From Escherichia phage PSD2002: a DNA stretch of 64,000 nt. Position numbers and translations under genes: made by a program. The notes under the pieces are model-generated. The model had not been told where the DNA came from and did no database searches. It saw only the letters and a list, made by a program, of their open reading frames with translations. Positions 29,726 through 55,220 of this stretch are shown here, one piece after another (position 1 is the stretch's first letter; every line of letters begins with the position of its first letter). The stretch is from sequence record OK335775.1, one strand, 5' to 3'.

Positions 29726-30184
29726 ATGTCAGAAATTAATTCAGAAGTATTCATCCGCCGCAACAAATTACGTCGTCAGTTCGAAACCGAATTCCGCGAA
29801 CTGAACACGTCCATCAAAAAAGCCGCCGTTAAGAGCGGAGTCCCGGCCTTCTTTATTAAGTACTCTAATCACTTGTTGGACCGTGCTATCCAACGTGAAA
29901 TCGACGAAAAATACGTTTTTGCTTTATTCAAGCAACTCCATAACCATGTTAAAGAAATCCATGAATTTTTAATCCAGGAACCTCTGCCTGATGTAGAATC
30001 CGAAATTGTCCCTGGTAAAGTGTATCGTCCATTGCGTCTCGAAATTACCGATAAAACCTTATGGCTAGGTATGACCGTAGACCGTAAACATCCTGATAAA
30101 GGATATTCCCTTAAATGTCGTATGGCATTTGTTAACTCTAAACGTTTAGAAGGTAAAACCAGCACGAAAGTAATTTACTTGTGA
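29726..30184 (+). CDS. hypothetical protein
   Basis: 152-aa ORF downstream of the cassette. Confidence 0.45.
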   Translation: MSEINSEVFIRRNKLRRQFETEFRELNTSIKKAAVKSGVPAFFIKYSNHLLDRAIQREIDEKYVFALFKQLHNHVKEIHEFLIQEPLPDVESEIVPGKVYRPLRLEITDKTLWLGMTVDRKHPDKGYSLKCRMAFVNSKRLEGKTSTKVIYL

Positions 30185-30191
30185 GGACAGT

Positions 30192-30938
30192 ATGGAAACT
30201 ATAAAATATCCATATGACTACTATAAAATAATAAATGACGCCTTATCTAGGGATACACCTAATGATGCCTATACAGAAAAGCACCATATAATACCGAGTT
30301 GCGTTGGTGGTCCTGACACTCAAGACAATTTAGTTGAGCTTTATGCTGACGAACATTATTTGGCCCATATGTATCTAGCCAAAGCTAATCCAAACCACTA
30401 TGGGTTGAATTTTGCTTGGCTAAATATGAGCTCTACTTCAAATTCAAAACAAAGGTCTTATTTTGTAGATTCTGAAAATTATAAGTTGGCTAAAGAATCA
30501 TTTTCAAAATTGCAATCTATTAATAAAATTTTATTTTTCTCTAAAAAGGAAAATAGGGCTGCTCATTCAATGGCTTTAATAAAGTATTTTGAAAAGGAAG
30601 GCTCTAAAGAACGGCTCAAAGAAATTTTAAATTCGCCAAAAGTAAAAGCTAAAATGTCTGAAAAACGGGTTAAGTATTTTGAAAATCCTGAAAATAGACA
30701 AAAATTTAAAGCCATACAAAATTCTAAAGAAACTATAGAAAGGAAAAAAGCCTCTTTGCGGAAATCCCCTATATGGCATGAACCGATGTATTCACAATTA
30801 TATAAATTATGGGTAGATAATAATAAACTCAAGTGTGGAAGATTTAGTAAAATCGCAATTAAGAACGGCTTCCCTAATGTAGATTACCGAGGACTTATTG
30901 ATTATGATTTTTCTAAAAAAAACTTAAATATTCTTTAA
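30192..30938 (+). CDS. freestanding HNH homing endonuclease
   Basis: HNH motif EKHHIIPSCVGGPDTQDNLVELYADEHYLAHM; C-terminal basic module shared with the endonuclease at 53672. Confidence 0.7.
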   Translation: METIKYPYDYYKIINDALSRDTPNDAYTEKHHIIPSCVGGPDTQDNLVELYADEHYLAHMYLAKANPNHYGLNFAWLNMSSTSNSKQRSYFVDSENYKLAKESFSKLQSINKILFFSKKENRAAHSMALIKYFEKEGSKERLKEILNSPKVKAKMSEKRVKYFENPENRQKFKAIQNSKETIERKKASLRKSPIWHEPMYSQLYKLWVDNNKLKCGRFSKIAIKNGFPNVDYRGLIDYDFSKKNLNIL

Positions 30939-30940
30939 TA

Positions 30941-31462
30941 GTGGCTATTATGTGTGGTTCGTTTTCTGTAAGTGCAGCAGAACCCGTATTTACAGAAACC
31001 CAGCTTGATAATTTACATTATGCGTATGCTTTCGGTGAACAATACCAAAAGTCGGGAAAGTTCAAAGAAAACCCTAATCAAAAAGGATTAGGATATATTA
31101 TGGCCGGATTACTATGGCAGGAATCATCCGCCGGAATTAATCAGGGTTTAAATAAAGATAAGCACCATGCTTATGGCATGTTCCAAAATTACTTGCCTAC
31201 TTTAAGAAGTCGTGTTCAACAGGTAGGTTGGAAGATGTCTGATAAAGAAATAATTCGTATGGTCCAAAAACGACAGAACAGTGCCTCTTGGGCCTACATT
31301 GAACTGTCTTATTGGATTGATGTTCACAAAGGTGACCTGAGAAAAGCGATTGCTTCTTATAATGCGGGCTGGAACGTCAAAGTAGGCAGTAAATATGCTT
31401 CTGAAGTTCTAGAAAAGGCCAATTATCTAAAATCTAAAAAGATGTTTGAGGCGGTATATTAA
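30941..31462 (+). CDS. lytic transglycosylase-like (SLT domain) protein
   Basis: GLLWQESS ... GMFQ ... ASYNAG resemble SLT motifs (ES, GLMQ, AYNAG); hydrophobic N-terminus. Confidence 0.5.
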   Translation: MAIMCGSFSVSAAEPVFTETQLDNLHYAYAFGEQYQKSGKFKENPNQKGLGYIMAGLLWQESSAGINQGLNKDKHHAYGMFQNYLPTLRSRVQQVGWKMSDKEIIRMVQKRQNSASWAYIELSYWIDVHKGDLRKAIASYNAGWNVKVGSKYASEVLEKANYLKSKKMFEAVY

Positions 31463-52973: not shown

Positions 52974-53672
52974 ATGAAATTCTCTAAAGAAACTCTGAAC
53001 ATTCTGAAAAACTTCTCCGGTATTAACCCAGGTATCATGCTTAAACCTGGTAACACTATTCTAACTCGTTCAGTAACGGGTGCAAGTTATGGTGAAGCTA
53101 CTGTAAATGACACCTTTGATATCGAAGCCGCAATCTACGACCTGAACGGCTTCTTAAGTATTCTGTCATTGGTATCTGAAAGTGCTGAAGTTTCGGTAAG
53201 TGAAGACCAAACCACTTTAATTATTAAAGACCAACGTTCAACTATTAAGTGGCCTATTGCCGACCCAAGCACAATTGCATTCCCAAGCAAAGCTATTCCA
53301 TTCCCGGTGGCTGAAGTTATTTTTGACCTTAAAGCCGAAGATTACCAGCAGTTGATGCGTGTGTCCTCTGGACTGAGTATTGATACATTTGCTATTACTG
53401 TAGACAATGGTAAAATTGTAATCAATGGCTACAAACAAGTTGATGATAAGGACCTGGCCCGTCCATTGTATTCCTTAGTGGTTGCAGACCATGATGGCCC
53501 TGAATTCAAATTCATTATCAACAAAACTAATATGAAAATGATGCCTGCCGATTACCATGTATTGTTATGGGCCCGTGGTGAAGGCCAGGACGCTCGTTTC
53601 GCAGCCAAGTTTGAAGGTTCACAAGCTTCTTATGTATTGGCTATGGAAGCAGGCTCAAGCCACTCGTTCTAA
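52974..53672 (+). CDS. 45: sliding clamp gp45
   Basis: 232 aa; N-terminus resembles T4 gp45 (LKNF..IN.GIMLK ... AIYDLNGFL.ILSLV). Confidence 0.9.
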   Translation: MKFSKETLNILKNFSGINPGIMLKPGNTILTRSVTGASYGEATVNDTFDIEAAIYDLNGFLSILSLVSESAEVSVSEDQTTLIIKDQRSTIKWPIADPSTIAFPSKAIPFPVAEVIFDLKAEDYQQLMRVSSGLSIDTFAITVDNGKIVINGYKQVDDKDLARPLYSLVVADHDGPEFKFIINKTNMKMMPADYHVLLWARGEGQDARFAAKFEGSQASYVLAMEAGSSHSF

Positions 53673-54250
53673 TGTATATATGTTATCATAATACGATAAC
53701 CAACACTAAAACCAAGTGTGTCTATCATTATTTTGGTAGACACCGTGTTACTGCTGAAGAATACTACGGTACAGGTAAGTTTGTTAAGAAATGCAAACGA
53801 GAAAATGCTATTACTCCAGGTCTTTGGGAGTTTTGTGTTGAAGTTATCCATACAGTGGATACGTTTAAAGAAGCCAAGATTATTGAAGAAGAGCTTGTTA
53901 AAGAAGGCATATCAAAATATGGTATCCTTTGTGTTAATAAGAATCCTGGTGGTGATGGCGGTGTGGATTACCACACCGAAGAATCTAAACGTAAAATGTC
54001 AGAAACTAGAACAGGAAAATCAAGAATATTTTCCGAAAGTCATAAAGAAAATTTAAGTAAACGAGCCAGAAAATACTCTGATGTTTGGTCCGAACCTGTA
54101 TATTCAAATCTTAAAACCATTTGGCTGGAAACAGGTATGTTAAAACGCGGACGGTTTAGTACGCTTTTACAAAAATATGGGTATAATTATTCTGCGAATG
54201 AATTGAATAAAATTGTTAAACATTTTAATGAGGAAAATAATAATGAGTAA
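53672..54250 (+). CDS. GIY-YIG-like (seg-type) homing endonuclease inserted between genes 45 and 44
   Basis: N-terminal YICY ... VYHYFG (degenerate GIY-x10-YIG); C-terminal basic module similar to the HNH endonuclease at 30192; T4 has no gene between 45 and 44. Confidence 0.5.
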   Translation: MYICYHNTITNTKTKCVYHYFGRHRVTAEEYYGTGKFVKKCKRENAITPGLWEFCVEVIHTVDTFKEAKIIEEELVKEGISKYGILCVNKNPGGDGGVDYHTEESKRKMSETRTGKSRIFSESHKENLSKRARKYSDVWSEPVYSNLKTIWLETGMLKRGRFSTLLQKYGYNYSANELNKIVKHFNEENNNE

Positions 54251-55220
54251 AGTAGTAAATGGTTTAACTATTAATGAAAACGACTTCATGTGGGAACAGA
54301 AATATCGTCCAGGTACTTTATCTGAGTGTATTCTGCCTGCGCATGATAAAGAAACCCTCCAAGCCATTGTTGATAAGGGCCTAATCCCTAACATTATCCT
54401 AGTCTCTGCTTCACCAGGTACAGGTAAAACTACCGTAGCTAAAGCATTGTGTGCTGATACAAATTCAGACATGTTGTTTGTTAACGGTTCTGACTGCCGT
54501 ATTGATTTCGTTCGTAATGAACTTACTCGTTTTGCATCTTCCAAATCTATCGAAGGTAAGCGTAAGGTAATTGTTATCGACGAATTCGACCGCGCCGGTG
54601 TTGCTGAAGCTCAACGTCACCTTCGTTCGTTCTTAGAAGCCTATTCCTCAAACTGTTCTGTAATTATTACAGCAAACAATATTGATGGTATTATCGGCCC
54701 ACTTCAATCCCGTTGTCGTGTTATTAAATTTGGTGAAGCCACTCCGGCCGACCAAACATCCATGATGAAAGAAATGATTCATCGTGCTGTAGCAATCTGT
54801 AAAAACGAAAATATCGAAGTCGAAGACCTTAAAGTTATTGCTGCCTTAGTTAAACAAAACTTTCCTGACTTCCGTAAAACAGTTAACCAACTGGACCGTT
54901 ACTCATCCAGTGGTAAAATCGATACAGGCATTTTGAGTATTGTAATGAATACCAATTCGCCTATCGATGAAGTAGTGGCTGCACTTAAAGATAAAAACTT
55001 TAAAGAACTCCGTGCATTAGCTCCACGTCATGTCAACGATTATTCCAACTTTATTATGTCGCTGGCTAACGAACTCTATGGTAAATTGCCTGGGCCAAGC
55101 ATTGTTAGAATGTACGAAATTGTCGGTGAAAATAACCAATACCACGGTATTGCGGCTAACCCAGAAATTCACATGACTTATCTGTTCATCCAACTTGCTC
55201 TGGAGCTCCAATGGCTATAA
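54243..55220 (+). CDS. 44: clamp loader large subunit gp44
   Basis: Closely resembles T4 gp44 (EQKYRP ... SPSPGTGKTTVAKAL ... VIVIDEFDR); start at the ATG overlapping the upstream stop. Confidence 0.9.
   Translation: MSKVVNGLTINENDFMWEQKYRPGTLSECILPAHDKETLQAIVDKGLIPNIILVSASPGTGKTTVAKALCADTNSDMLFVNGSDCRIDFVRNELTRFASSKSIEGKRKVIVIDEFDRAGVAEAQRHLRSFLEAYSSNCSVIITANNIDGIIGPLQSRCRVIKFGEATPADQTSMMKEMIHRAVAICKNENIEVEDLKVIAALVKQNFPDFRKTVNQLDRYSSSGKIDTGILSIVMNTNSPIDEVVAALKDKNFKELRALAPRHVNDYSNFIMSLANELYGKLPGPSIVRMYEIVGENNQYHGIAANPEIHMTYLFIQLALELQWL

Follow-up and report, generated by a model that had tools for sequence, protein, structure and literature searches.

Two putative freestanding homing endonucleases of different catalytic families from Escherichia phage PSD2002 share a C-terminal three-helix module

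The stretch of Escherichia phage PSD2002 analysed here (64,000 nt of record OK335775.1, hereafter the window) contains two open reading frames (ORFs), at 30192-30938 (248 amino acids, aa) and 53672-54250 (192 aa), which the original prediction had described as freestanding homing endonucleases with unrelated nuclease domains and similar C-termini. Both ORFs were confirmed. The reading that we favour, at a probability of roughly 0.8, is that they are two independent freestanding homing endonuclease genes, one of the HNH and one of the Seg-type GIY-YIG family (below, the HNH ORF and the seg ORF), whose products end in a homologous domain gained by old shuffling. As judged from sequence and predicted structure, each protein has its nuclease at the N-terminus, followed by a basic linker and then by a three-helix C-terminal domain of ∼52 aa (the module). 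The linker is of the NUMOD3-like type in the seg protein and is made up of helical Lys-rich repeats in the HNH protein. The two genes and their parts are:

30192-30938, + strand: freestanding MobD-like HNH homing endonuclease gene, 248 aa, between regB and vs.1 (ORF list, PHROG, homology to T4 MobD)
30270-30377, + strand: HNH catalytic motif, aa 27-62, YTEKHHIIPSCVGGPDTQDNLVELYADEHYLAHMYL (motif alignment, Pfam, relatives, structure model)
30471-30755, + strand: Lys-rich helical linker, aa 94-188, net charge +13, with repeated P-x-x-x-K-type segments (six helices predicted with high confidence)
30759-30920, + strand: shared C-terminal three-helix module, copy 1, aa 190-243
53672-54250, + strand: freestanding Seg-type GIY-YIG homing endonuclease gene, 192 aa, between genes 45 and 44 (ORF list, PHROG, relatives)
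53672-53962, + strand: GIY-YIG nuclease domain, aa 1-97
53972-54019, + strand: NUMOD3-like segment, aa 101-116, HTEESKRKMSETRTGK (Pfam NUMOD3, E 0.0059, 17.0 bits, under the gathering score of 20.4)
54071-54241, + strand: shared C-terminal three-helix module, copy 2, aa 134-190

The motif that had been put forward as common to the two tails (W-H/S-EP-M/V-YS-Q/N-L ... LK-C/R-GRFS) is literally present in both; the HNH ORF ends in ...SPIWHEPMYSQLYKLWVDNNKLKCGRFSKIAIKNGF and the seg ORF in ...SDVWSEPVYSNLKTIWLETGMLKRGRFSTLLQKYGY. Formal alignment showed the similarity to be significant. Composition-adjusted BLASTP aligned residues 163-227 of the HNH protein with residues 100-171 of the seg protein (E 4e-9, 33% identity over 72 aa) and gave no alignment of the N-termini. 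The Smith-Waterman score was 104, a value reached in 0 of 2000 shuffles (mean 36.1, standard deviation 6.1, maximum 70; z ∼11). As a non-circular test, hidden Markov models (HMMs) were built from each family separately. The model made from the C-termini of the seg relatives only found the HNH ORF with an E of 2e-7 among the 635 six-frame ORFs of the window, and the HNH family model found the seg ORF with 3e-8, the next best matches being above 0.2; each family thus picked out the other alone. The description of the two segments as basic held for the HNH module, which has a net charge of +6, and barely for the seg module (+2). At the DNA level the two module copies are 45% identical, and 32% identical at third codon positions, so that no recent exchange took place between the copies in the window. 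The comparison points to acquisition of the module by both proteins through old domain shuffling. A third module copy or further endonuclease genes were not found in the window.

The assignment of the two N-termini to different catalytic families was borne out by the HNH motif and MobD homology on one side and by GIY-YIG motifs and likeness to I-TevI, in profile and fold, on the other. In the HNH ORF, the sequence EKHHIIPSCVGGPDTQDNLVELYADEHYLAH aligns to known HNH motifs, those of McrA and a group II intron maturase. HH31-32, N46, H55 and H59 are all present, and the last three are invariant in the alignment of relatives. The protein matches PHROG 655 ('homing endonuclease', 4e-36). Its closest counterpart among the T4 endonucleases is MobD (37% identity over 217 aa, E 8e-34, spanning nuclease and tail), followed by MobE (2e-23), MobB (4e-12) and MobC (2e-9). 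The AlphaFold2 (AF2) model, with a predicted local distance difference test score (pLDDT) of 90.8, contains a beta-beta-alpha unit (strands 29-32 and 47-50, helix 52-65), six linker helices and three terminal helices. The linker (aa 94-188) gave no match to the Pfam NUMOD models; its segments may be NUMOD3-like repeats. Of 207 related phage records, 4 carry the gene, in each case at the regB/vs.1 junction, and the ratio of nonsynonymous to synonymous substitution rates (dN/dS) across alleles is 0.04-0.07.

The seg ORF is 100% identical to EpBp7_0082 of phage Bp7, which is annotated there as 'unknown', and matches PHROG 314 ('homing endonuclease', 9e-17); the orthologue in phage MX01 carries the UniProt name 'Homing endonuclease'. 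In the alignment of seg relatives Y5, Y20, G22, Y31, G33, G35, E72 and N89 are conserved, E72 and N89 being invariant. The segments 'YICY' (with Y5) and 'YHYFG' (with Y20 and G22) align to the GIY and YVG of I-TevI, and an hhalign comparison with I-TevI (83% probability, E 8e-6) places E72 on the catalytic E75 and N89 on N90. A phmmer search of the PDB sequences with the seg ORF gave no match. The AF2 model (pLDDT 82.9, ∼90 in the N-terminal domain) shows the elements beta-beta-alpha-beta-alpha in the expected order, with a three-stranded sheet flanked by helices as in the I-TevI fold, and the best match of the predicted nuclease fold among solved structures is the I-TevI catalytic domain. Foldseek comparison of the model with viral models retrieved Seg-like endonucleases, T4 SegF (UniProt P04523) being among the best BFVD matches. 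The GIY-YIG fold, the absence of which had been named as fatal to the original prediction, is thus supported by conserved residues, profile alignment and modelling. Across alleles the dN/dS of the gene is 0.12-0.22; the low ratios in both genes indicate that both encode proteins under purifying selection.

Two further observations concern the seg alleles. Between the window and MX01, the synonymous divergence (dS) of the seg gene is 0.85 (78% aa identity) and that of the adjoining gene 45 is 0.33; the endonuclease allele therefore appears to have a history unlike that of its flank, either by independent acquisition or by recombination at the junction. In vB_EcoM_005, a 112-nt deletion (equivalent to window positions 54141-54252) takes away the latter half of the module together with the beginning of gene 44, and joins seg residues 1-156 in frame to gp44, giving a protein of 478 aa that is annotated as clamp loader. 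If the deletion is real, an essential replication protein would be made as a fusion to a GIY-YIG nuclease domain.

Three helices are predicted for the module in both proteins, in a helix-turn-helix pattern, and helices 2 and 3 carry a helix-turn-helix-like A-x3-G pattern. Both module models match the same homeodomain/Myb-like DNA-binding domains, with DNA-bound structures as the top matches. On these models the module is probably a DNA-binding domain. Its profile has the consensus W..ydeLy.lW...PK.g.F.tia..nGYp.....y..lv..Fn, or in a longer form RKS..W..YDELY.LW..NNKPK.G.F.TIA..NGYP.....Y..LV..FN. The search for NUMOD domains that had been suggested did not place the module in a curated family: it matches none of the NUMOD1-4 Pfam models, and Pfam at E≤10 and NCBIfam gave no match to either copy or to the module-only proteins described below. 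The only NUMOD signal near it is the sub-threshold NUMOD3 match upstream of the module in the seg ORF. A relationship to the helix-turn-helix of I-TevI (NUMOD1) was also rejected, as hhalign found nothing. The module is therefore best described as an uncurated relative of the 'nuclease-associated modular' DNA-binding domains.

Word-indexed homologue searches gave only 4 and 18 relatives, and an exhaustive profile search was needed; among 1.84 billion cluster representatives it yielded 50 proteins at E≤1e-3, two of which were set aside as spurious. All searches together gave 57 module-bearing proteins, which a sort by regular expressions divided into 24 Seg-type GIY-YIG proteins, 10 Mob-type HNH proteins and 11 of a second HNH subtype ('HHILPK...'). 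The remaining 12 were left unclassified by this sort; most of them are, by eye, also GIY-YIG or HNH proteins or fragments thereof. The proteins hold one to three copies of the module in tandem, and tandem copies are frequent in the metagenome representatives. Of 68 modules compared, 21 have their nearest neighbour on a protein from the other nuclease superfamily. The closest relatives of the seg module, beyond its orthologues, are modules on HNH proteins, which are closer to it than the module of SegF. The mixed nuclease partners and the nearest-neighbour crossings point to repeated shuffling, in agreement with the signature of shuffled modules that had been claimed from the two window proteins. 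It is possible, if somewhat short of an even chance, that the module represents an undescribed homeodomain-like class of nuclease-associated DNA-binding domain, present largely in T4-like phage homing endonucleases, repeatedly swapped between Seg-type GIY-YIG enzymes and two HNH subfamilies and occurring in one to three tandem copies.

One of the proteins found, P0054, consists of three module copies only. Its locus (Logan contig SRR23468731_21050, 2363-3606) is T4-like, and P0054 directly follows, with a 4-nt overlap, a 213-aa ORF composed of GIY-YIG, NUMOD3 and module. P0054 was considered as a stand-alone module protein and rejected as such, since the adjoining, overlapping ORF looks like part of the same endonuclease; the two ORFs are probably one four-module endonuclease split by a frameshift or stop. 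P0027 and P0034 are further module-only proteins.

When applied to the T4 genome (1428 six-frame ORFs), the module HMM found exactly MobD (E 1.6e-10), SegF (1.7e-6) and SegA; in the same six-frame search no module was found in the other T4 endonucleases. On this sequence comparison the shared-tail pattern is not particular to PSD2002. T4 MobD, the closest relative of the HNH ORF in a characterised genome, resembles it in having an HNH motif, a Lys-rich helical linker and the C-terminal module; it is inserted at nrdC.11/mobD.1, whereas the HNH ORF lies at regB/vs.1. T4 SegF and SegA have the Seg-type GIY-YIG domain, basic linker and same C-terminal module of the seg ORF, and are freestanding promoter-less cassettes between essential genes (PMC2988022). 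SegF, a GIY-YIG enzyme, mediates intronless homing and marker exclusion at gene 56. The seg ORF differs from SegF and SegA in its site (45/44), its smaller length (192 aa) and its sequence (∼21% identity, E 9e-7).

In the design known from I-TevI, I-HmuI and the NUMOD domains, an N-terminal nuclease is tethered to a string of small DNA-binding modules, which turn up again in different catalytic families (PMC2988022, PMC1564403). Both window proteins share the NUMOD concept, with a small module recurring C-terminal to GIY-YIG and HNH domains, and the seg protein resembles I-TevI in the predicted fold of its nuclease domain and in its weak NUMOD3 match. Unlike those of I-TevI and I-HmuI, the HNH and seg genes are freestanding and not intron-encoded, and no zinc finger is evident in their products; the profile of the shared module shows no similarity to that of the I-TevI C-terminus. 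T5orf172 and other phage homing endonucleases also have small DNA-binding domains that are repeated in tandem and exchanged between nuclease families (Barth et al. 2023, PMC10448857). These are Zn-finger (CapR/DUF723) or AP2 domains, whereas the module described here is, as predicted, all-helical and helix-turn-helix-like.

The genome is, by its sequence, that of a Dhakavirus, a JS98/Bp7-like T4-type coliphage; this assignment and the gene names are based on 91-99% DNA identity to Bp7, IME08, MX01, IME540 and others and on their annotation. The gene order is vs.4 - regB - HNH ORF - vs.1 - vs around 30 kb and rpbA - 45 - seg ORF - 44 - 62 around 53 kb. The features at the two junctions are:

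29726-30184, + strand: regB, host gene 5' of the HNH gene; its stop codon, TGA, shares bases with GAGGA, the Shine-Dalgarno sequence of the HNH gene (TGAGGA)
30915-30922, + strand: A8 homopolymer run at the 3' end of the HNH gene (A7 in four relatives)
30941-31462, + strand: vs.1, host gene 3' of the HNH gene; its 5' end (signal-peptide region, ∼80 nt) has diverged from the endonuclease-free allele (Bp7 alignment, N-terminus comparison)
52974-53672, + strand: gene 45 (sliding clamp); its TAA stop overlaps the seg ATG (TAATG)
54243-55220, + strand: gene 44 (clamp loader); its Shine-Dalgarno sequence and ATG lie within the last seg codons

The claim that the 45/44 insertion is missing from T4 proved correct, T4 having only a 50-nt spacer between the two genes, and most relatives lack the insertion as well. 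Eight of 203 related records, from Dhakavirus and Gaprivervirus, contain the seg gene, in every case between genes 45 and 44; the protein identity is 100% in Bp7, 78% in MX01 and 60% in the Gaprivervirus VR20. The endonuclease-free 45/44 allele of IME08 has a 55-nt spacer with a GC hairpin and TATAAT, as has that of T4, and a spacer of this type is replaced in the window. The last seg codons (..NEENNNE*) overlie the Shine-Dalgarno sequence and ATG of gene 44 (AATGAGGAAAATAATAATGAGTAA). In all carrier alleles the start of gene 44 is rewritten: it reads M-S/A-K/T-V-V/I-N-G-L-T-I/V-N-E-N/S-D-F versus M-L-T-V-N-N-N-E-F in IME08, with six extra codons and many substitutions. Such rewritten sequence beside the insertions would be expected if the target is located there and the carrier has to be protected from cutting.

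The gene 44 start is annotated differently among the carriers. The Bp7 record starts the gene at an ATG inside AATGAGG (window 54228). Comparison with T4 (AATGAGGAAATTATG) assigns this ATG to the Shine-Dalgarno region and puts the real start at the ATG at 54243, and the MX01 annotation uses the equivalent position. A T4-like gene 44 translation-initiation sequence is thereby kept within the seg coding sequence (window 54228-54245); in T4 this sequence is the site of RegA action. In VR20 the hairpin after gene 45 (GGGGCTTCGGCCCC; 1463-1500 of its stretch) is kept and GGAG serves the seg gene as a Shine-Dalgarno sequence of its own, unlike in Dhakavirus, where the seg ATG overlaps the gene 45 stop and no Shine-Dalgarno sequence precedes it. 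The right seg junction is identical between Dhakavirus and VR20 and the left one differs; with the difference in Shine-Dalgarno sequence, this means that the mode of seg translation probably differs between the two lineages.

At the other junction, IME540, 04086, FB and NC-G, which carry the same HNH gene, have A7 where the window has A8. With A7, vs.1 begins at ATG 30904 inside the 3' end of the HNH gene and encodes the signal-like sequence MIFLKKLKYSLIAAIMCGSF... With A8, this ATG is out of frame and vs.1 can start only at GTG 30941 or ATG 30950, which leaves a shortened N-terminus and no Shine-Dalgarno sequence; the HNH tail becomes four residues longer (248 versus 244 aa). The extra A reflects either a genuine frameshift or an error in sequencing the homopolymer. 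Beside the HNH insertion there is a further small presence/absence polymorphism, an extra 210-nt ORF between vs.4 and regB in IME540 (663-872) and FB (263-472), which the window and Bp7 lack.

According to the literature, intronless homing and marker exclusion are brought about by enzymes of the Seg and Mob families, both of which have 'beads-on-a-string' DNA-binding regions (PMC2988022, PMC1564403, PMC2330249, PMC10448857). By analogy with the literature on Seg and Mob enzymes and on I-TevI (PMC2988022, PMC2330249), module and linker would anchor either enzyme on a long degenerate site at or beside the unoccupied junction of a co-infecting phage that lacks the endonuclease gene. The tethered nuclease would then cut nearby, making a double-strand break (GIY-YIG) or a nick (HNH), and recombinational repair would copy the endonuclease gene with its flanking markers into the recipient. 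Rewriting of the junction and of the opening codons of the gene that follows, gene 44 or vs.1, would protect the carrier genome from being cut. Both genes are presumably expressed from host-gene transcripts, the seg gene by translational coupling to gene 45 and the HNH gene from the Shine-Dalgarno sequence that overlaps the regB stop codon. A search for promoters of their own (sigma-70-like, T4 late TATAAATA, MotA box) or terminators gave nothing above background at either gene. Many Seg and Mob genes are promoter-less, segC, F, G and mobA, C, D, E being named as such cassettes (PMC2988022), and the two window genes agree with this.

Several points weigh against the reading of the two ORFs as homing endonuclease genes with a DNA-binding module. 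The Pfam HNH match of the HNH ORF (E 0.011, 16.3 bits) is under the gathering score of 21.4, as is that of the T4 MobD-like protein P0065, and the Pfam GIY-YIG and SegE_GIY-YIG models gave no match to the seg ORF at E≤1. The catalytic Arg27 of I-TevI falls in a gap of the seg profile alignment and has no aligned counterpart; the stretch is missing from the seg ORF and its aligned relatives, with R23, R25 and K36 nearby, and appears from a comparison of N-termini by eye to be missing from active T4 Seg enzymes too. The activity and target of T4 MobD have not been determined (PMC2988022), so that no function can be transferred from it to the HNH ORF. Finally, the conserved residues of the module belong mostly to its hydrophobic core, and its specificity-determining contacts are hypothetical.

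The last point would also suit a module that serves as a protein-protein interaction or regulatory domain, for example in docking on a phage replication or recombination factor, and that was reused for that reason. Its most conserved positions are hydrophobic, it is similar in enzymes at quite different sites, and the net charge of the seg copy is just +2. However, the A-x3-G pattern of helices 2 and 3 and the DNA-bound homeodomain/Myb domains at the top of the fold matches of both models speak for DNA binding, tandem arrays of one to three copies that follow basic linkers agree with the beads-on-a-string design (PMC2988022, PMC10448857), and none of the results suggests a partner protein. We consider a docking function unlikely.

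Slightly less probable still is that both ORFs have lost the ability to home and persist as decaying or domesticated remnants, with the shared tail as a relic. The seg ORF is short compared with full-length T4 Seg enzymes (205-224 aa), both nuclease domains score under the Pfam thresholds, the HNH allele of the window has its unique 3' A8 frameshift, and in vB_EcoM_005 the seg gene is fused to gene 44 by the deletion. Against decay stand a dN/dS of 0.04-0.22 across alleles, intact catalytic motif residues, a seg gene kept at the same junction in two genera with 60-100% identity, and a rewriting of the junctions such as active elements typically show.

Recent gene conversion between the two endonuclease genes within the genome would explain why the seg allele of the window has 'EP-x-YS-x-L' like the HNH gene where its closest relatives P0001-P0003 have a two-residue gap. 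This is very improbable and was rejected on DNA identity, since the values of 45% overall and 32% at third positions are about random for AT-rich DNA; the same stretch is found, moreover, in the unrelated T4 SegF, P0024 and P0026. A chance or compositional match of two Lys-rich tails, both rich in K, N and E and with a short aligned core (∼35-50 aa), is refuted by the shuffles, the composition-adjusted BLASTP, the reciprocal HMMs and the recovery of exactly three endonucleases from T4, and deserves next to no weight.

That phage GIY-YIG and HNH endonucleases share modules in a mix-and-match design has long been known (PMC2988022, PMC1564403), shuffling and repetition of domains in phage homing endonucleases have more recently been shown once more (PMC10448857), and the established picture of modular homing endonucleases is unchanged by our results. 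What is new is modest: two unnamed members of the Seg and Mob groups at junctions where T4 has no endonuclease gene, and a defined module family that is missing from the domain libraries. No description of the module or of the 45/44 endonuclease was found in the literature covered, which did not include the original NUMOD and SegF papers, and an earlier one is possible.

The repertoire of Seg and Mob enzymes gains two putative freestanding homing endonucleases, one of which is placed inside the core replication operon, and the module links T4 MobD, SegA and SegF with many metagenomic endonucleases. The analysis allows better annotation of the seg copies of Bp7, MX01 and VR20, which were deposited as 'unknown' or 'hypothetical'. 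The module also offers a handle for predicting endonuclease targets and is possibly a small DNA-binding part for engineered nucleases. If it does form a homeodomain-like class of its own, the elements at 45/44 and regB/vs.1 would each add an unnamed member, to the Seg and the Mob group respectively, with new target sites, and the module could be a compact, recombinable recognition unit that sets the landing sites of freestanding endonucleases.

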